DNA of 42,919 nucleotides, counting the filler, from Candidatus Desantisbacteria bacterium CG1_02_49_89 (lineage in GTDB: Bacteria; Desantisbacteria; UBA1551), in the NCBI GenBank assembly GCA_001871075.1. It is 2 parts of 2 records of this genome, joined end to end, with 100 filler letters (N's around TTAATTAATTAA, not from the genome) between each part and the next. Parts side by side here need not be neighbours in the genome. Positions count along the whole stretch, not along the records: positions 1 to 31,263 come from MNUP01000006.1; 1 more part is not named here. One strand, given 5' to 3'. The first letter of the stretch is position 1; each line of letters opens with the position of its first letter. Positions 16,672-27,801 of the stretch are shown piece by piece. Made by a program: the position numbers and the translations under genes. The notes under the pieces were generated by a model. It was not told where the DNA came from. It made no database searches and saw only the letters and a program-made list of their open reading frames with translations.

Positions 16672-18477
16672 CTAATGCTTCTTTAAAAATATCATCAGAA
16701 CTGAGATGTCTGACGCCGTAACGCCCTGGATACGGGACGCCTGGCCAAGTGAGGCCGGGCGTATCCTTGTGAGTTTCTGCCTTGCTTCTGTTTTCATCCC
16801 GTGTATCTTCATGTAGTCAAAATCTTCCGGGATCCTGTTGTCTTCCAATTTTTTAAATTGTTCCGCTTGTTTCTTCTGTCTTTCCAGGTATCCTTTATAC
16901 TTCAGCTCGATCTCAGCTTCTCGCAGGATGTCTTCGGATATTCTATCCCCGTGTAACGCAGGCTGTTTATTCTCTTTGCGACGTACGACGTACGACCTAC
17001 GACCTACGACGTCATCTACGGCCTCCCACTTTCTCTCAAATCTCCCGTATATTTTCTCAGAGATCAGCCCGAACTCGCGCCCGAACGGCATCATTCTGCG
17101 ATCAGCGTTGTCGCAGCGCAGGAGCAGGCGGTATTCAGCGCGGGAAGTGAACATCCTGTACGGCTCTTCCACCCCTTTTGTAACAAGATCGTCGATCATT
17201 ATACCGATATACGCCTGGGATCTATCGAGAATGAAAGGCGGTTTCCCTTTCAGTTTAAGCGCCGCATTTATGCCCGCGGTTATTCCCTGCGCTGCCGCTT
17301 CCTCATAACCGGTTGTGCCGTTTATCTGGCCGGCGAAATACAGGCCTTCAATAAGCTTTGTTTCAAGCGTGGGCTTCAACTGGGTGGGGTTAAAATAATC
17401 ATATTCTATCGCGTATCCGGGGCAGTTTATCTTTGCTTCTTCAAGGCCTTTTATCGAATGTATATATTCTTCCTGCACTTTTTCAGGCAGGCTTGTTGAA
17501 ATGCCGTTAGGGTAGATCTCATTGCTGTCCCTTCCTTCCGGCTCAAGGAATACCTGGTGCCTTTCCCTGCCAGCGAACCTTACGACCTTGTCCTCAATGG
17601 AGGGGCAGTACCTTACGCCCGTCGCCCTGATCTTCCCGCCGTACATCGCTGAAAGGTGAAGGTTTTTCTTTATTATCTCATGGGTTTTGGGATTTGTGTA
17701 GGTTATGTAACAGGGGATCTGGCCGCAGGATATCTTTTCCGTGAAGAACGAGAAGGGCCTGGGATCTTCGTCTCCGTTCTGGACGATCAGTTTTGAAAAA
17801 TCGATCGTTCTTCTGTCAAGCCGCGCAGGCGTTCCTGTCTTGAGCCTTCCTGCCCTGAAACCGAGTTTTTCAAGGCTTTCGGTCAATCCTTTTGCCGCAG
17901 GCTCCCCGAACCTGCCGCCTTCAAACGATCTGTCCCCGATATGCATCAACCCGTTTAAAAAAGTCCCTGCGGTCAGTATCACCGCTCTTGCTTCGTATTC
18001 TTTCCCATCTTCAGTTCCCACAATTTTGCATTTTGCCCCAAAGGGACTCGTTCGAGCATTTTGCATTTTGCATTGGACAGCGATGCCTTCTTTAACCTCC
18101 AGCCCCTTCTGGTTCTCCACAACATCCCGCATCGCGGTCCGGTATGCCTGCCTGTCACACTGCGCCCTGGGCGCCTGAACCGCAGGGCCTTTTTTAGTAT
18201 TGAGCATCCTGAACTGTATGCCTGTCCTGTCAGTGACCTTCGCCATTTCGCCGCCCAGCGCGTCCACTTCCGCGACAAGGTGGCTCTTGCCGATCCCTCC
18301 TATTGACGGATTACAGGACATCTGCGCTATTGTGCCGCGGCTTATGGTCAGCAAGAGAGTGCGGCATCCCATTCTCGCGGAAGCGAGCGCCGCCTCGCAC
18401 CCCGCATGCCCCGCTCCAACTACAATTACGTCGTACGTCGTACGTCGTACGTCATGCATGGTTTTAAAAACAGTCAT
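16672..18477 (-). CDS. mnmG: tRNA uridine-5-carboxymethylaminomethyl modification enzyme MnmG/GidA
   Basis: [66 protein letters not shown]. The exact start is uncertain because of repeats. Confidence 0.97.
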
Positions 18478-18526
18478 GTGTCATGAGTCATATGTCATGA
18501 GTTGAATTTGTTCTAATCATTATAAC

Positions 18527-18554
18527 ATTATAACAAAAAAGATTTTATTGTCAA
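18527..18554 (-). promoter_or_regulatory. sigma70 promoter of mnmG-purC(-guaA)
   Basis: TTGACA, 16 bp, TATAAT with a TGn extension. Confidence 0.65.
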
Positions 18555-18619
18555 CTTTATACGCCTGCTTTTTCCAAAGGTCAGAACGTTAGAAAAAAAT
18601 AATTGAATAATGATTTTTC

Positions 18620-18648
18620 TTGACAAATATATGAATATCTGATACAAT
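18620..18648 (+). promoter_or_regulatory. sigma70 promoter of mtrB-trp
   Basis: TTGACA 18620-18625, 17 bp, TACAAT 18643-18648 with a TGn extension. Confidence 0.8.
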
Positions 18649-18697
18649 AGTATTTGTTTTGTTCGAAGAAGTAAGGATAGGATAAACAGGTGCAAAT

Positions 18698-18940
18698 ATG
18701 GAAGTTGAATACATTGTAGTAAAAGCTTTGGAAGACGGCGTGTCAATAATGGGAATGACGCGCGGAAAACAGACCTTCATACACCACACGGAAAAACTGA
18801 ACAAGGGTGAGGTTTGGCTGTGCCAGTTCACGGACGACACGTCCGCGATCAAGATACGGGGAAAAGCAAGGGTATTCACAAAACACGGTGAGATAGAGTC
18901 AGGCCAGTCAAAAACCGTGAAAGTAGTAAACAAGCAGTAG
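18698..18940 (+). CDS. mtrB: trp RNA-binding attenuation protein TRAP
   Basis: YIVVKALEDGVSIMGMTRG..T..HHTEKL.KGEV...QFT..TSAIKIRGKA aligns without gaps to Bacillus MtrB as recalled. Confidence 0.93.
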   Translation: MEVEYIVVKALEDGVSIMGMTRGKQTFIHHTEKLNKGEVWLCQFTDDTSAIKIRGKARVFTKHGEIESGQSKTVKVVNKQ

Positions 18941-19024
18941 ATAGAGTCCAGATCAGCGTAAGCCGGGACCAGATAAGAACAGGATACAATTCGTGTATTC
19001 GTTTTTATCTGTTGACCGGGCTTA
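18932..19024 (+). promoter_or_regulatory. TRAP-binding NAG array overlapping an antiterminator hairpin
   Basis: Triplets ending at 18934, 40, 46, 51, 56, 62, (67 GGG), 72, 77, 82. Hairpin: TAAGCC/GGCTTA, CAGATAAGAAC/GTTTTTATCTG, GGATAC/GTATTC. Confidence 0.8.
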
Positions 19025-19042
19025 TTGCCCGGTCTTTTTATT
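19014..19042 (+). terminator. Attenuator terminator of the trp operon
   Basis: GACCGGGC-TTATT-GCCCGGTC-TTTTTATT; its 5' arm overlaps the antiterminator 3' arm. Confidence 0.85.
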
Positions 19043-19171
19043 CCATAAAGAAGAATAGCCACAGAGGATACAGAGAGTCAGCCACTGAGTTCACTGAATT
19101 CTCTGAGTTTTAACCGCGAAACCTTTAAGCCTCGAAACCGCGAAACAAATACAATAAGGAGTAAGCTCAGT

Positions 19172-20194
19172 ATGATACGGGAAGCGATAGCAAAAGTAAT
19201 ACAGAAACAAGACATGGCAGAGGAAGAAGCGGCTCAGGCGATAAATGAGATAATGGACGGGGCAGCCACGCCTTCCCAGATATCCGCCTTGATCACCGCC
19301 CTGCGTATGAAGGGCGAGACCGTTGAGGAGATCACGGGTTTCGCGAAAGTCATGCGCCGGAAAGCTGTCCCTATCGATATCGATAGGGACGGCAAAATAC
19401 TCGCTGATACCTGCGGCACAGGCGGGGACGGGGCAGGCACGTTCAATATATCCACTGCCGTCGCGTTAGTCGCGGCCGGGGCCGGGCTTGCCGTGGCAAA
19501 ACACGGCAACCGCTCGGTCTCAAGCTCATGCGGCAGCGCTGACGTGTTCGCCGCGCTTGGGGTTAATATCGAGATCCCGGCGGAAAAAGTGAAGGAATGC
19601 GTGGAAAAGATCGGGATAGGTTTTTTGTTCGCTCCCCTCTTCCACTCAGCGATGAAACACGCCGGTGCGACGCGCAAAGAAATAGGTATCCGCACGATTT
19701 TTAATATACTCGGGCCCCTTACTAACCCGGCAAACCCCTCTGTCCAGCTTGTTGGAGTCTATGATCCAATGCTGACTGAGATCGTGATCGAAGTCCTGAA
19801 AAACCTCGGCCTTAGATCAGCCATGGTTGTGCACAGCGAAGACGGGCTTGACGAAATAAGCATATCAGCGCCCACCAAGATCACGCATTTCGAAGAAAAC
19901 GCCGACGTCGAAACATACTCCGTAAAACCTGAGGATTTCGGGCTGAGCAGAGCCGCGCTGAAAGAAGTGGCAGGCGGCAGCGCGAAGAAAAACGCGGAAA
20001 TAGTAACAGATATTCTCGCGGGAGAGAAAGGCCCGAAAAGGGATATAGTAATCCTGAACGCGGCAGGCCTTTTTGTCACTGCGGGTATTGCGAAGGATTT
20101 CTTTGAAGGAATAAAAAAGGCTGAGCATTCCATAGATTCAAGCCTCGCACTTAAAAAACTCAATGACCTCATTGAATTCACACAGGGGTTATAA
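19172..20194 (+). CDS. trpD: Anthranilate phosphoribosyltransferase
   Basis: [40 protein letters not shown]. Confidence 0.97.
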
Positions 20195-20196
20195 CA

Positions 20197-21369
20197 ATGA
20201 TGCCTGACAAAAAAGGATATTACGGGATCTTCGGCGGAATGTTTGTGCCCGAGACACTTGTTCCCGCTCTCAAAGAGCTGGAAAAAGTATATAATAAGGA
20301 AAAGAGAAGCCGGAGATTCAGGGATGAGCTGGGCTTTTACCTGAAATATTACGCGGGAAGGCCCACGCCGCTTTATTTCGCGGACAGGCTGAGCGCGCGC
20401 CTTAAGGGCATTGAGGTCTATCTTAAAAGGGAGGACCTCCTGCACACGGGCGCGCACAAGATAAACAACGCGCTGGGCCAGATACTGCTCGCAAAAAGGA
20501 TGGGTAAGAAACGCGTTATAGCTGAGACAGGCGCGGGCCAGCACGGGGTCGCAGTCGCGACAGTCGCGGCGAAATTCGGGTTTGAATGCTGCGTGTATAT
20601 GGGAACGGAAGACATGGAAAGACAGGCGCCGAACGTGCTCCGCATGAAACTTCTGGGCACGAAAGTCATACCGGTAAACTCGGGAAGCAGGACACTTAAA
20701 GACGCGATCAACGAAGCTTTGCGCGACTGGGTCTCAAATGTCGGGACAACCTATTACCTTTTCGGCTCTGTAGCCGGCCCACACCCCTACCCTCTTATCG
20801 TGCGCGATTTCCAGTCCGTAATAGGAAAGGAAACAAGAAAACAGATACTGGACATAAAAGGAAGGCTGCCTGATTACATTTTTGCGTGCGTTGGAGGCGG
20901 AAGCAACTCGATCGGGATATTCCACGCTTTTTTGAAAGACCGCCGGGTAAAACTTATCGGGGTGGAAGCGGCAGGCCTGGGGCTTGGCTCAGGAAAACAC
21001 GCGGCAACCCTTTGCAAGGGTTCACCCGGTGTCCTGCACGGAGCTAAAAGCTACGTCCTTCAGGATAAAGACGGCCAGATACTGGCAACCCATTCTGTCG
21101 CCGCAGGCCTTGATTACCCCGGAGTAGGTCCTGAGCACAGCTTCCTGAAAGAAACAGGGCGCGCTCAATACGCGTCCGTCACGGATAAAGAAGCTCTTGA
21201 AGCGTTCAATCTTCTGAGCAGGCTTGAAGGAATAATACCCGCGTTTGAATCATCGCACGCGCTTGCCTATCTGGTAAAGATCTCAAAAAAACTAAAAAAA
21301 GGAACCGTCGCAGTCGTAAACCTGTCGGGCAGAGGGGATAAGGACCTGGGAAATCTGGTTGAAAGTTAA
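20197..21369 (+). CDS. trpB: Tryptophan synthase beta chain (TrpB1)
   Basis: [47 protein letters not shown]. Confidence 0.98.
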
Positions 21370-21417
21370 AAGTTGAAGGTTAAAAGTTCAAGGATTTCAA
21401 ATATACAATTTCAAATC

Positions 21418-21550
21418 TTCTTCTGCCGCGAGGTGCTTTCCCGTAGCGGGCTTTAAAGATTTTTTCACAGGACCCTACGGAAAAAATTTTAGAGCGAGCA
21501 GTCAGATGCGAGCGACCCGCCGAGGGAAACACCGAGAAAAGACAGAAGAA
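21418..21550. repeat. Long imperfect inverted repeat between trpB and trpA
   Basis: TTCTTCTG/CAGAAGAA, GGTG.TTTCCC/GGGAAA.CACC, GCGGG/CCCGC, CTTTAAAGATTTTTTC/GAAAAAATTTTAGAG. Confidence 0.7.
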
Positions 21551-21568
21551 ACATAAATTCAAACTAAT

Positions 21569-22390
21569 ATGAATAGGATAGAGGAAAAGTTCAGACAATT
21601 GAAAAGAAACGGAAAGAAAGCCTTCATACCGTATATCACATGCGGCTTTCCCGACCTGCGGACCACTGAAAAGCTCATCCCGGCAATGGAAAAAGCCGGA
21701 GCTGACATCATTGAGCTGGGCGTGCCGTTCTCTGACCCCATAGCCGACGGGCCCGTGATCCAGTTCTCCTCGCAGGAAGCGCTGAAGAAAAAAGTAAATC
21801 TTCGAAAGATCCTGAAAATGGTGTCCGGCCTGCGCCGCCGCAGGACCCAGGTCCCGGTGGTGCTTATGGGATATTACAACAGCATCTGCGCTTACGGGGA
21901 GAAAAAATTTCTCAGAGACGCGGCAAAAGCAGGGATAGACGGGCTTATTATCGCGGACCTTCCAGCGGATGAGGGAAAGGCATTCAGCAGGCAGGCCGCG
22001 GAACGCGGTATTGACGTCATTTTTCTCGCTGCTCCCACAAGCGGGGCGCAAAGGCTTAAAAAGATAGCGCGCCTCAGCAGGGGTTACGTATATTACGTTT
22101 CCCTGACAGGCGTTACAGGAGCCAGAAAAGAACTGCCTCCCGGGCTAAGGGAAAAGATCAGGTCTGTGTGCCGCCTGACCTCAACGCCGGTATGCGTGGG
22201 GTTCGGCATTTCAAAACCCGGGCATATAAGGTCCCTCGAAGATGCCGGTGACGGCATTATCGTGGGAAGCGCCATAATAAACATAATGAAAAAGAACGCG
22301 GGCCGCCGTCGTAGGGACCTGGTCCGGAAAACCGCGGAATTTGTTGGGAAGCTTGCCGGGGCACTTACCGGGGCATGCGGAGAAAGATAA
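21569..22390 (+). CDS. trpA: Tryptophan synthase alpha chain
   Basis: IELGVPFSDPIADGPVIQ, MGYYN, YYVSLTGVTG, VGFGIS, DGIIVGSA. Confidence 0.98.
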   Translation: MNRIEEKFRQLKRNGKKAFIPYITCGFPDLRTTEKLIPAMEKAGADIIELGVPFSDPIADGPVIQFSSQEALKKKVNLRKILKMVSGLRRRRTQVPVVLMGYYNSICAYGEKKFLRDAAKAGIDGLIIADLPADEGKAFSRQAAERGIDVIFLAAPTSGAQRLKKIARLSRGYVYYVSLTGVTGARKELPPGLREKIRSVCRLTSTPVCVGFGISKPGHIRSLEDAGDGIIVGSAIINIMKKNAGRRRRDLVRKTAEFVGKLAGALTGACGER

Positions 22391-22392
22391 AA

Positions 22393-23160
22393 ATGTACCT
22401 TGACAGGATAATCGAAAATAAGAAAATTGAGATCAAGAAGAACAGGAAGGCGTACGAAAAACTCGCAGGCAGATCCGGTAAAAAAAAGAACACCAGAGAT
22501 TTTTTAAAGGCGCTTTCAAAGCCCGGGCTGAACGTGATCGGCGAGGTTAAAAGGTTTTCGCCCACAAATCCCCTGCCCCTTCGGAAGTTCGACCCCGGCG
22601 CAATAGCCAGGAAATACGAACAAGGCGGGGTTTCAGCCGTGTCCGTGATAACGGACAGGAAATTTTTCGGCGGAAGCTTTGAGATCCTTAAAGAAGTAAG
22701 TGAAAACATCGGCATCCCGGTGCTTTGCAAGGAATTCGTGATAGACGAGATCCAGATAAGGATGGCGCGCGCAAGCGGGGCGGATGCCGTCCTGCTCATA
22801 GCCAGGATCCTGGACGAAGAAAAGCTCAGGTCTTTCCTGTTAAGCGCACGCTCCCTGGATATGCGCGCGCTGGTCGAGATACACGACGAAGATGACCTGA
22901 TAAAAGCGGTCGGATGCGGGGCGAAGATCATCGGCATCAACAACCGCGACCTTGACACCCTGAAAACAGACCTTGGCGTCACCGTAAGGCTTGCCGGGTT
23001 GGTCCCTGATGACAAGATCATTGTGAGCGAAAGCGGGATTAAAACATATAAAGATATCCTGAGAGTGCGCGGGGCCGAAGTTGACGCGGTCCTTATAGGG
23101 GCCGGGCTTCTGACGAGATCTGAGATCGCGGACAGGATCCATGAATTCAGGGGGATATAA
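22393..23160 (+). CDS. trpC: Indole-3-glycerol phosphate synthase
   Basis: IGEVKRFSP, SVITD..FFGGS, GADAVLLI, LVEIH, IGINNRDL, VSESGI. Confidence 0.96.
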   Translation: MYLDRIIENKKIEIKKNRKAYEKLAGRSGKKKNTRDFLKALSKPGLNVIGEVKRFSPTNPLPLRKFDPGAIARKYEQGGVSAVSVITDRKFFGGSFEILKEVSENIGIPVLCKEFVIDEIQIRMARASGADAVLLIARILDEEKLRSFLLSARSLDMRALVEIHDEDDLIKAVGCGAKIIGINNRDLDTLKTDLGVTVRLAGLVPDDKIIVSESGIKTYKDILRVRGAEVDAVLIGAGLLTRSEIADRIHEFRGI

Positions 23161-24650
23161 TGCTCTGCCCGGACCTGAAAAGTTTCTGCAGGCTTGCGAA
23201 AAAAGCGAATATCGTCCCGGTATACAAGGAAGTCCTCGCGGACCTTGAAACGCCCGTATCCGCTTTCCTGAAGATCTCAGGGAATTCAAGCCACGCGTTC
23301 CTGCTTGAAAGCGTTGAAGGGCAGGAAAAAATAGGCCGGTATTCGTTCATCGGCGCGGACTTTTTCCTTACCTTCAAAAGCAAGGGGAACAAGGTCCGGA
23401 TCTGCGAACGCGGCAGGGAAAAAGAATGCGCTGTCGGAAAGGGGGACCCGCTTGAGAACCTGAAAGAGATAATGCGGGAATACAGGCCGCCAAGCACAAG
23501 CGCCCTTCCGATATTCGCCGGAGGAGCGGTCGGGTACCTTTCCTACGACCTTGTAAGGTTCTTTGAAAAACTGCCTGACAAAAATCCGGACGCGCTGGGG
23601 CTTCCGGACGCTTACTTCCTGCTCACGGACACGTTCCTGATATTTGACCACATAGAGCACTCCATAAAGATCGTGTGCAACGCCCGGGTCGCGGACGGCA
23701 ATCCCGCTTCTGCTTACGCATCCGCCCGCAGGAAGATCGAGGGCATAGAGCGCAGGTTGAAAACAGGCAGGGTTTCGCACATCGATTATTCCCCTAACAA
23801 CAAGGAAATCCTTTTTAACTCAAATTTCACTAAAGCGGAATTCACGGAAGCGGTCAGAAAAATAAAGGCTTACGTGCGCGGCGGGGATATCATACAGGCA
23901 GTGCTTTCCCAGCGGTTCAGCGCAAAGATAGACATAGAGCCCTTTAACCTGTACCGCGCCCTGCGCGTGGTCAACCCCTCGCCATATATGTTCTACTTCA
24001 AACTGCCGGAATGCAGCATCATAGGTTCTTCCCCGGAGATATTCCTGCGCATAGAGAACGGCAGGGCGATACTGCGGCCGATAGCGGGCACAAGGCCGCG
24101 GGGAAAAACCCCGGACGAGGACAGGAAACTGGAAAAAGAACTTTTAAAGGATAAAAAGGAAAAAGCCGAGCACCTGATGCTGGTTGACCTGGGCAGGAAC
24201 GACCTGGGAAGGATATGCGAATACGGCAGCGTTCGCCCCAGTGATTTCATGAACGTGGAAAGGTACTCACACGTGATGCACATAGTTTCCGAGGTTACGG
24301 GCAAAATGAAGCGCGGCAAAGACTGTTTTGACGCCGTGCGCGCCTGCTTTCCCGCGGGCACGGTGAGCGGGGCGCCGAAGATCAGGGCGATGGAGATCAT
24401 AGAAGAGACCGAAAAAGAAAAACGCGGGATCTACGCGGGCGCGATCGGGTATTTCTCCTACAACGGCAACATGGACACCGCGATAACCATCCGCACGATA
24501 CTTATGCTCGACAGCCGCTGCTGCATACAGTCAGGCGCCGGCATAGTCGCTGATTCGGTGCCTGAAAAGGAATATTCGGAAACGCTCAACAAGGCAAAAG
24601 CCATGCTGAAGGCGATCTCGGTGACAAGCGGTCTTCGAAAAAAGAAATAA
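23160..24650 (+). CDS. trpE: Anthranilate synthase component I
   Basis: [55 protein letters not shown]. Confidence 0.97.
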
Positions 24651-24661
24651 AAGGAAAAAAC

Positions 24662-25495
24662 ATGATCCTTATGATCGATAACTATGACTCTTTCACCTAC
24701 AACCTTGTCCAGTACCTGGGGGAACTCGGGCAGGACGTAAAGGTCTGCAGGAATAACAGGATATCCCTGAAAAAAATATCTTCGCTCAAACCGCAAGGCA
24801 TAATAATATCTCCGGGCCCCGGTACGCCTGACGATGCGGGCATCTCCAGGGAAACGATCAGGGCGTTTGCGGGCAGGATACCGATACTGGGCGTGTGCCT
24901 GGGGCACCAGTGCATAGGAGACGTTTTCGGAGGCAGGATAGTGCAGGCAGGAAGGCTTATGCACGGCAAAACATCCCTTGTCTACCATGACGGCAGGACC
25001 ATATTCAGGGGCCTTTCCAATCCCTTTGAGGCAACCAGGTACCACTCGCTCATCATTGAAAGAAGATCGATCCCGGACGCGCTTGAAATTTCCGCCTGGA
25101 CCAAGGAAGGCGAAATAATGGGAGTGCGCCTTAAGAAAAAAGCGTGTCCCGCCCAGCAAGCGTTGGCGGGCAAGCGCCGTATCAACGTGTCAGCGTGTCA
25201 GAGTTCAAAACGCACGACCTGGGACGTACAACGCACGACGCACAGCTTGCCCGCCAATCTTGCTGGGCGGGACGCACGACGCACGACCCGCAACGTACGA
25301 CGTACGACGTTCGACGTTCGACGTATGACGTGTATTGTAGAGGGTGTTCAGTTCCACCCGGAATCCATCCTTACGGCAGAAGGCAAAAAATTGCTTAAAA
25401 ATTTCCTTAATATAAGTCGTGCTACTCACCCTCACCTTTATCCTCTCCCCTCGAGGGAGAGGGATGGAGTGAGGGGCAAGGAGAAAAAATGGTAA
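24662..25495 (+). CDS. trpG: Anthranilate synthase component II with an in-frame insertion of about 64 aa and a C-terminal extension
   Basis: [27 protein letters not shown] and QFHPES are all intact; insertion at 25142-25333. Confidence 0.93.
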
Positions 25496-26139
25496 AAGTA
25501 AAGATCTGCGGTATCGTGAAGGACAAGGACGCGCATTTCGCCGAGGGTTTCGGCGCGGATATACTGGGCTTCAATTTCTTCAAAGGTTCGCCGAGGCGCA
25601 TAAGCTGCAAGGCTGCAAAGGAGATCGTAAAGGGCCTGCGGTATTCCACGAAATCCGTGGGCGTCTTCGTTGACGAGAAATTGGAAAAGATCGCCGAGAT
25701 CATAGATTTCTGCGGCATCAAGCTCATCCAGCTGCACGGCGGCGAAACCCCGGAGTTCTGCGCCGAGCTGAAAATGAAGTACCCGTGGATCCAGGTGATA
25801 AAGGCTTTCAGGATAAAGAAAGCGGTCGACTTCAAGCAGATATACACGTTCTTAGCCCCCCAGAGGGTCATTGATTTCATACTGCTGGACACCCATAAGA
25901 AAGGGATCCCGGGCGGAACCGGCAAAAAGTTCAACTGGGGTCTCGCGCTGAAAGTTAAAAGGTACGCTCCCGTAATTCTTGCAGGGGGCCTTAATCCGGA
26001 AAATGTCAGGGAAGCAGTGTCAAAAATACATCCCTACGCCGTTGACGTTGCAAGCGGCGTAGAGAAAGGGGGAAGTAAAAGAGGAGAGAAGGATTACGAC
26101 AAGATGAGCCTGTTCATAAGGAACGCCAAATCAGTTTAG
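25489..26139 (+). CDS. trpF: Phosphoribosylanthranilate isomerase
   Basis: [43 protein letters not shown]. Confidence 0.96.
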
Positions 26140-26146
26140 AAAAATT

Positions 26147-26312
26147 GATTACACCGATTTTTTTAAGACGATTACACCGATTACCACGCGGTCATTGCGA
26201 GCGTCAGCGAAGCAATCCCATGTATTTAGATTGCTTTGTCGCTTTGCTCCTCGCAATGACAGCTTCAAATCTTGTAATCTGAGTAATCATTGTTTAAGAA
26301 ATCTGTGTAATC
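26147..26312. repeat. Nested palindromic element (GTCATTGCGAG...CTCGCAATGAC) inside GATTACACCGAT / ATCTG.GTAATC repeats
   Basis: Inner inverted repeat 26191-26260; half copy at 27714-27748; elaborated copy at 35910-36067. Confidence 0.75.
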
Positions 26313-26336: not shown

Positions 26337-27692
26337 ATGGATCAGAACAAGATCATTTTAAGCGAGAAGGATATGCCGCAGGCCTGGTATAATATCCTTC
26401 CGGACCTGCCTGCGCCGTTCCCGCCGCACCTGCACCCGGGGACCATGAAACCGCTGGGGCCGGCGGACCTGGCGCCGCTGTTCCCGATGGAGCTGATAAA
26501 GCAGGAAGTCAGCATGGAACGGTTCATACCGATCCCGGATGACATCCAGAGGATCTACAAACTCTGGAGGCCGTCACCCCTGCACAGGGCGTACAGGCTT
26601 GAAAAGGCGCTTGGGACACCCGCAAGGATCTATTACAAGAACGAAAGCGTAAGCCCCGCGGGCAGCCACAAGCCGAACACGGCGGTCGCGCAGGCGTATT
26701 ACAACAAGAAGGAAGGCGTCACGCGGCTTGCCACGGAAACCGGAGCCGGCCAGTGGGGAAGCGCGCTTGCTTTCGCGTGCAACCTGTTCGGGCTTAAGTG
26801 CACGGTTTATATGGTAAAAGTGAGCTACGAGCAGAAGCCGTACAGAAAGATAATGATGCAAACATGGGGAGCAGAGGTTCACCCGTCCCCCACAACGCTG
26901 ACTAACTCCGGCAAGGCAGCGCTTCAGAAAGACCCGAACTGCCCCGGAAGCCTGGGGCTTGCGATCTCAGAGGCTGTTGAAGACGCGGCAACCCATGATG
27001 ACACAAAATATTCGCTGGGAAGCGTGCTCAACCACGTGCTCATGCACCAGACGATCGTCGGGCTTGAAGTTGAAAAGCAGCTGAAGATAGCGAAGGAAAA
27101 ACCGGATATAATGATCGGCTGTGTCGGCGGCGGAAGTAATTTCGGCGGGTTCATGATGCCGTTCGTCAGGGAAAAAATGAAGGGAAGGAACATCAGGTTC
27201 ATCGCGGTAGAGCCGACATCCTGCCCCTCACTCACAAAAGGGCCGTACATCTACGATTACGGCGACGTCGCTAAACTGGCACCCATCGCGAAAATGTACA
27301 CGCTGGGGCATGGTTTTATCCCGCCTGCGATACACGCGGGAGGACTGCGCTACCACGGGGACGCCCCTATTCTCTGCCTGCTTGTGAACAAAAAGCTCAT
27401 AGAAGCGGTCGCGTATGACCAGAAGCCGGTATTTGAAGCAGCCCTGATGTTCGCGCGCACAGAGGGCATCATTCCCGCTCCTGAAACCGCGCACGCGATA
27501 AAAGCGGTGATAGACGAAGCCCTGAAATGCAAGGCATCTAACGAAGCCAAGTGTATCGTGTTCAACTTCAGCGGTCACGGGCACTTTGACCTGGCAGCGT
27601 ATGATGCCTATTTATCGGGAAAGCTTGAGGACTTTCCTCTGCCCGAGGAAAAGATCAAGGAAGCCCTTAAGGACGTCCCTAAAGTGGACTAG
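26337..27692 (+). CDS. trpB2: TrpB2 (TrpB-like PLP enzyme)
   Basis: [63 protein letters not shown]. Confidence 0.95.
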
Positions 27693-27763: not shown

Positions 27764-27801
27764 ACAAAAAGCCGCGGTTTTTCTGCCGCGGCTTTTTTGT
27801 T
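27764..27801. terminator. Bidirectional intrinsic terminator, copy 1
   Basis: AAAAAGCCGCGG-TTTTTCTG-CCGCGGCTTTTTT; identical 38 bp at 30101-30138. Confidence 0.85.

Follow-up and report, generated by a model that had tools for sequence, protein, structure and literature searches.

TRAP is a textbook RNA-binding switch that has been studied almost only in Bacilli, with its gene apart from its targets; the B. subtilis mtrB belongs to a different operon from trp. In the genome of Candidatus Desantisbacteria bacterium CG1_02_49_89, the TRAP gene is the first gene of a trp operon, and the original prediction placed a complete attenuator right after its stop codon. This raises the question of whether TRAP in these bacteria controls the genes that follow it, via an RNA switch carried on its own message. 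We addressed this question using a stretch of 42,919 nucleotides (the window). A TRAP-dependent attenuator, as first proposed, is probable, judging from the sequence and from modelled RNA folds. The mechanism is a known one; it is the layout, the host and the sequence variant that are unusual.

The transcription unit and its first gene

The features of the region are as follows.

16672..18477, minus strand: mnmG, divergent neighbour and synteny anchor for contigs L084 and L085 (Pfam GIDA, E 1.5e-168)
18620..18648, plus strand: promoter of the whole unit, TTGACA-17-TACAAT with TG before the -10 (11/12 consensus matches)
18698..18940, plus strand: mtrB, encoding an 80-aa TRAP (PF02081 profile match)
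18932..18982, plus strand: putative TRAP-binding array, nine NAG triplets in ten slots with a period of 5-6 nt (chain search)
18956..18967, plus strand: 5' arm of the predicted antiterminator extension, holding the AAG triplet at 18960 (minimum free energy folds of truncated transcripts)
18970..19011, plus strand: long hairpin, -18.6 kcal/mol, with the last three triplets in its 5' arm (RNA fold)
19014..19042, plus strand: intrinsic terminator (attenuator), with an 8-bp stem (19014-19034; 7 GC), a 5-nt loop and a T-run
19043..19171, plus strand: spacer before trpD, 129 nt, with short dispersed repeats (promoter scan, Rfam, sequence)
19172-20194, plus strand: trpD
20197-21369, plus strand: trpB
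21569-22390, plus strand: trpA
22375-23160, plus strand: trpC
23160-24650, plus strand: trpE
24662-25495, plus strand: trpG
25489-26139, plus strand: trpF
26337-27692, plus strand: trpB-like gene (PALP), the second trpB of the operon (B2)
27766..27797, plus strand: strong bidirectional terminator at the operon end

The product of mtrB is, by its sequence, a full-length TRAP/MtrB. It matches the PF02081 profile, as expected from its initial identification as a TRAP gene, with an E-value of 5.9e-35 and a score of 119.4 bits (cut-off 21.3), and the match covers residues 3-68 of 69. TRAP chains from the PDB align to it at E-values of 1e-24 to 3e-42.

The consensus promoter that had been predicted ahead of mtrB was found at 18620-18648. 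It is the sole plus-strand promoter-like site in the interval 18300-19400, as is the stem at 19014-19034 with its T-run the sole terminator-like site. TTGACA and TATAAT also occur upstream of mtrB in the metagenome contigs L084 and L085. Comparison of the contigs of four DNA runs with the window revealed only three SNPs (18631, 18645 and 18934) and nothing on structure. The C to T change at 18645, present in population variants and in a third contig (L083), converts the -10 element from TACAAT to the consensus TATAAT. The G to A change at 18934, found in natural variants, abolishes the first triplet of the array.

The next gene after the attenuator is trpD, as first described, with its start at 19172. 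A separate trpD promoter was looked for in 19043-19171, and no sigma-70-like site was found there in a scan that covers sigma-70-type sites only. TGG codons are absent from the same 129 nt, so a leader peptide with Trp codons is not encoded in them. An Rfam scan of 18000-20000 identified no family at gathering score (best 29.9 bits vs 45), and thus there is no indication of a T-box. The weak Rfam matches (ar9, SorX, Hrs12, L20 leader and SorY) overlie the hairpin and terminator and, being below gathering score, were treated as chance.

Short tandem or dispersed word repeats occur in several intergenic spacers of the region (18425-18455, 18470-18500, 19078-19153, 21370-21400 and 26150-26185). 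Two pieces of the spacer before trpD (19078-19109 and 19108-19153) recur on many other contigs (32 further blastn-short matches), and these repeats lift the contig depth three- to four-fold. Also present are a long imperfect inverted repeat (26190-26262) in the 198-nt spacer between trpF and the trpB-like gene, and a weak promoter-like site (21380-21409) in the trpB-trpA spacer (21370-21568, 200 nt).

The genome encodes BamA and LpxC. Thus, by gene content, the host is a diderm, in keeping with the earlier view that it was probably diderm. Its phylum, which is not the Bacillota, has only two species representatives in GTDB; in the other, we identified no TRAP and no convincing TrpA. The closest named match of the host MnmG is from one Candidatus Desantisbacteria (72% identity), and the next named matches are at most 60% identical. 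The runs identified as containing 18500-19600 are DNA from groundwater or aquifer metagenomes, with no RNA run among them.

The triplet array and the competing RNA folds

Putative TRAP-binding sites were located using a chain search, which requires NAG triplets to start every 5-6 nt and tolerates one skipped slot. The best chain occupies 18932-18982 and reads AAG UAG GAG CAG CAG AAG (GGG) CAG AAG CAG. The interval and the 5-6 nt spacing are those of the original prediction; the count, given there as about 10, is nine in ten slots. Only two of the nine triplets are of the canonical (G/U)AG form (UAG and GAG), the others being four CAG and three AAG. AAG and CAG repeats are bound poorly by B. 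subtilis TRAP. The first triplet of the array coincides with the penultimate mtrB codon, and the second with the stop codon. From this geometry, ribosomes finishing mtrB may occlude the first triplets.

The array is beyond chance. In the whole genome (2.48 Mb; 4.96 Mb for both strands), only two chains reach nine triplets, and the other is a coding CAG repeat. The remaining chains of at least eight NAG triplets are inside coding sequence or lack leader context, and no TRAP regulon could be proposed from them. Nine triplets were attained by 28 of 20,000 dinucleotide-preserving shuffles of 18925-18990, and by 4 of 20,000 such shuffles of 18900-19013. Because these shuffles keep the AG richness and rarely match the array, its periodicity is real. 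Two other candidate sites in the window were rejected. Autoregulation at the mtrB Shine-Dalgarno (SD) sequence was set aside as 18660-18690 contains few, irregular NAG triplets, and a second triplet cluster (19051-19089) is irregular and not conserved in L084.

The GC-rich terminator at 19014-19042 was identified as predicted, and the overlap of its stem with the 3' arm of an antiterminator holds. Alone, it has a folding energy of -17.9 kcal/mol. The minimum free energy fold of the full-length transcript (18925-19050) consists of the hairpin at 18970-19011 plus the terminator (-42.2 kcal/mol, z -5.2). The antiterminator is absent from this fold. For transcripts cut at 19024 or 19028, in contrast, the minimum free energy fold is the antiterminator, with 18956/18959-18967 paired with 19016-19028 and stacked on the hairpin. 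The antiterminator first placed at 18959-19024, under the array, is thus recovered in truncated transcripts and not in the full-length one. Within the terminator, the segment 19016-19028 takes in the 5' arm, the loop and the beginning of the 3' arm, and it doubles as the antiterminator 3' arm.

When the antiterminator is forced in the full transcript, the energy is -39.8 rather than -42.2 kcal/mol, a cost of 2.4 kcal/mol, and the terminator has an equilibrium probability of 0.98. The terminator fold at transcript end 19034 is at -40.4 kcal/mol and the antiterminator fold at end 19028 is at -32.7 kcal/mol. Since the terminator is dominant at equilibrium, any read-through would be kinetic or partial. 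Masking of 18932-18982, as a mimic of bound TRAP, leaves only the terminator and a small hairpin. Thus, judging from the truncated and masked folds, the array lies across the 5' strand of an antiterminator in competition with an intrinsic terminator, the latter being the more stable.

From these elements, we propose that transcription from the single promoter at 18620-18648 would produce one unit, with mtrB first and a TRAP-type attenuator directly after it. When tryptophan is scarce, TRAP would be inactive and the nascent RNA would fold into the hairpin (18970-19011) and its extension (18956-18967 with 19016-19028). With the terminator's loop and 5' arm sequestered in this antiterminator, part of the polymerases would reach trpD-B-A-C-E-G-F-B2. 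With tryptophan in good supply, a ring of Trp-bound TRAP would wrap the nine NAG triplets at 18932-18982. The 5' strand of the antiterminator would then be held single-stranded, the terminator (19014-19034) with its U-run would form, and transcription would stop. As the terminator lies 3' of mtrB, the short transcript would be the TRAP mRNA itself; TRAP would therefore be made constitutively, and the trp enzymes only conditionally, by read-through. Binding of TRAP to triplets that begin with A or C, the dependence on tryptophan, and a useful level of kinetic read-through from the weaker antiterminator are the parts of this scheme that we infer.

Syntenic relatives and alternative explanations

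The divergent mnmG-mtrB arrangement is common to three metagenome contigs. L083, which shows 7 differences over 5240 nt, is from the same organism. L084 encodes a TRAP 94% and an MnmG 84% identical to those of the window, and L085 encodes a TRAP 71% and an MnmG 70% identical (MnmG by tblastn in both cases). In L084, the hairpin, the antiterminator arm and the terminator are nearly unchanged, and the same antiterminator pairing is predicted. Three changes fall in the long helices, all of them to G-U pairs, and a fourth opens the pair that closes the apical loop; in the 11-bp helix at the base of the hairpin, the only change is to a G-U pair. Ahead of this conserved hairpin, the L084 triplets are spaced irregularly, at 7, 14 and 10 nt.

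The array of L085 is GAG AAG CAG UAG AAG AAG AAG AAG. It has eight NAG triplets, the first seven at an exact 5-nt period, and the predicted antiterminator arm is within the array. The T-run of the L085 terminator abuts the SD and start of a trpB-like gene. This leaves no room for a second promoter, so that read-through would be the sole route to that gene. The design of promoter, mtrB, array and terminator is thus kept, as judged by sequence comparison, in two syntenic relatives (L084 and L085).

In a TRAP tree, the window, L084 and L085 form a clade (SH-aLRT 96), and this clade is nested in a group that also holds the Aerophobetes TRAPs (support 91) and is separate from the Bacillota sequences. 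The tree is quick and weakly resolved (68 columns), and we used it for grouping only. One further TRAP gene, from a Bacteroidota-binned contig of a MAG labelled Chitinophagales, is placed among Bacillota sequences with a long branch, which mis-binning or gene transfer could explain.

Conservation in the relatives bears on the alternatives. One is that the terminator is constitutive and partial, imposing a fixed reduction of the trp enzymes relative to TRAP with no sensing of tryptophan, while TRAP acts elsewhere or on translation only. This would be consistent with a terminator that is stabler than the competing fold, with the non-canonical form of most triplets, and with the presence of a few NAG triplets around the trpD SD (19156-19170). 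However, the latter number only about four and are irregular, the array coincides exactly with the competing strand, and the same geometry is found in L085 and in many loci with GAG or UAG arrays. We consider a constitutive terminator unlikely.

Somewhat less likely again is that this is a plain gene end, where the terminator closes a monocistronic mtrB, the trp genes are expressed from an unrecognised promoter in 19043-19171, and the triplets are a by-product of AG-rich sequence. The strength of the terminator and its predominance over the antiterminator would suit this explanation, as would the 129-nt spacer, given the sigma-70-type scope of the promoter scan. TACAAT is present in the spacer at 19150-19155, but it has no -35 element and a start there would exclude the trpD SD; no promoter-like site was otherwise found in the spacer. 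Against a plain gene end are also the L085 terminator, which abuts the next SD, and the periodic array, which beats the dinucleotide shuffles and recurs after mtrB almost only where trp genes follow.

Termination in which bound TRAP pushes a paused polymerase forward, with the hairpin serving in pausing or RNA stability and no antiterminator competition, finds a precedent in B. subtilis, for which it has been proposed and where TRAP is reported to induce termination without need of the attenuator RNA, but is very unlikely here, as excerpts of the same source propose this model for weak, GC-poor attenuators (PMC3913778), whereas the terminator of the window is GC-rich and self-sufficient, so that read-through is what needs regulating and an antiterminator is called for.

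TRAP-dependent attenuation by competition with an antiterminator is thus the preferred reading. Counting against it are the seven non-canonical triplets, the greater stability of the terminator fold, the irregular triplets of L084 and the loss of the first triplet in natural variants. The original prediction of a self-contained module, in which the TRAP mRNA is attenuated and the trp genes are expressed by read-through, is supported by the non-random array, the competing folds, the lack of another promoter or leader element in the intervals scanned, and the retention of the design in relatives.

A TRAP variant and the recurrent mtrB-first layout

To compare RNA contacts, we numbered residues according to B. 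subtilis (query position + 4). In alignments, the equivalents of Glu36, Lys37, Glu42, Lys56 and Arg58 are present in the TRAP of the window as E32, K33, E38, K52 and R54. In passages of PMC4854314 and PMC1474065, these B. subtilis residues are assigned RNA-contact roles that include A2 and G3 of the triplet. The equivalent of Thr30, which sits in the tryptophan pocket according to an excerpt of PMC1474065, is T26 and is invariant in the TRAP alignment. Two contact positions differ, with Asn35 in place of Asp39 and Ile28 in place of Phe32. As described in parts of PMC1474065 and PMC4854314, the first G or U of each triplet receives a hydrogen bond from Asp39 and is stacked on by Lys37, Phe32 stacks on G3, and the first base gives little affinity.

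Phe and Asp occur at positions 32 and 39 in 136 of the 157 loci typed. Ile and Asn occur in only four (the window, L083, L084 and L085). Triplets beginning with A or C account for 13 of 17 in the window and L085, vs 28 of 131 across the arrays of Asp-type TRAPs; as only one clade shows this association, we treat covariation as a hypothesis rather than as demonstrated. Two TRAP-like proteins of gut Clostridia MAGs (loci L005 and L006, genomes G041 and G042) have Asn at both the Asp39 and Arg58 positions. We tried them as an independent test of Asn39, and identified no array near mtrB and no TrpE or TrpA match in their genomes. They are uninformative on Asn39, because Arg58 is also replaced by Asn and because array and TrpE/TrpA matches are lacking. 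These proteins may be TRAP homologues with another role.

Adjacency of mtrB and trp was surveyed in other genomes, as the original prediction had suggested. It was found outside the Firmicutes (Aerophobetes and the window), but the layout is a recurrent one that also occurs in Halanaerobiales and in Bacillota MAGs. Of the 80 loci taken from species genomes, 6 have a trp gene 3' of mtrB on the same strand; the same holds for 10 of the 80 taken from metagenomes, and for genome G038. The mtrB-first loci include those of Halanaerobiaceae (L009), Halanaerobacter (L076), Aerophobetes (L007 and L089), Bacillota MAGs (L004, L014 and L063) and G038 (L002). The trp-linked mtrB loci (18 of 156) have arrays of 6-11 triplets just after mtrB, and 133 of the 138 loci without a downstream trp gene have at most five triplets. 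In 14 of the 16 loci examined, the array precedes a hairpin with a perfect stem and a T-run, although one of these (L004) was discounted as spurious. Because the layout recurs across lineages, the regulator-first cassette is not peculiar to this genome; it is a recurrent type.

In a full-text literature search, we found neither an mtrB-first trp operon nor TRAP outside the Firmicutes described; as such a search may miss the likeliest reviews, we do not claim that the layout is not in print. The search also found no publication on the mtrB-first loci of Halanaerobiales, Aerophobetes or others.

Several of these loci have additional features. In L087 (1599-4035), mtrB and an eight-triplet array are followed by genes for an ABC-transporter substrate-binding protein (PF04392) and a permease, with no trp genes; this is a putative regulator-first cassette on a putative uptake system. 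In L004 (3207-4270), and likewise in L014 and L063, the order is mtrB, array, terminator, DAHP synthase (PF00793) and trpE, and a second GAG run occurs in the start region of the DAHP synthase gene. In the Halanaerobacter MAG (L076), which also has an array and terminator 3' of mtrB, a GAG run (1815-1850) covers the mtrB SD and start codon, suggesting that TRAP regulates its own translation.

The other mtrB-first loci resemble the window in having a promoter, mtrB, an array and a terminator, followed by trpE, trpB, a trpB-like gene, DAHP synthase or an ABC transporter. Unlike in the window, Asp39 is retained in their TRAPs, and GAG or UAG triplets predominate in their arrays.

Another close parallel is PyrR and the B. 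subtilis pyr operon, in which the gene for an RNA-binding attenuation protein comes first and an attenuator follows directly in the intercistronic region; that operon has a further attenuator in its 5' leader. The protein family, the ligand and the RNA site differ, and the window has no 5' leader attenuator. The trpR-IGR-trpBA arrangement of Chlamydia trachomatis is similar in its order, with the gene for a regulator at the front, an intergenic regulatory region behind it and the trp structural genes last. However, according to the portion of the source consulted, TrpR is a DNA-binding repressor and the intergenic region holds a promoter and operator, with no RNA attenuator (PMC7755916).

In excerpts describing the trp leader of B. 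subtilis, binding of Trp-TRAP leads to termination and the xAG triplets lie over the antiterminator 5' strand (PMC3064811, PMC4027176, PMC3913778). The window shares with the trpEDCFBA leader the TRAP family, a periodic row of xAG with 2-3 nt spacers over the antiterminator 5' strand, and the overlap with a terminator; the expected logic, in which Trp-TRAP would cause termination, is also alike. In the window, however, mtrB heads the operon, and the attenuator, which begins within the last mtrB codons, is intercistronic. Compared with about 9-11 (G/U)AG triplets in B. subtilis, the number and spacing fit, but seven of the nine triplets begin with A or C. In addition, the TRAP itself differs by Asn for Asp39 and Ile for Phe32, and the host is a diderm outside the Bacillota. 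Finally, Bacillus attenuators are weak, as stated in part of PMC3913778, whereas the terminator of the window is strong and GC-rich.

In summary, what is unusual here is a diderm, non-Bacillota host, an array of mostly non-canonical triplets, and Asn at the position where Asp39 reads the first base. A broader reading, possible but tentative, is that the RNA specificity of this TRAP has shifted (Asn for Asp39, Ile for Phe32), that the arrays have co-evolved towards triplets beginning with A or C, and that the regulator-first unit is a portable cassette, able to bring whichever gene lies downstream under the control of tryptophan. The natural Asp39-to-Asn variant with its A/C-first array offers a direct test of first-base reading by TRAP, and where TRAP is used in engineering, the variant and its array could supply an orthogonal protein-RNA pair. 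The cassette is also a simple model of regulation, as the terminated transcript would double as the mRNA of the regulator. The window and its relatives point to a compact regulator-plus-switch cassette in diderm candidate phyla, one that would work wherever it is placed; if true, such portability would account for its spread into these phyla.
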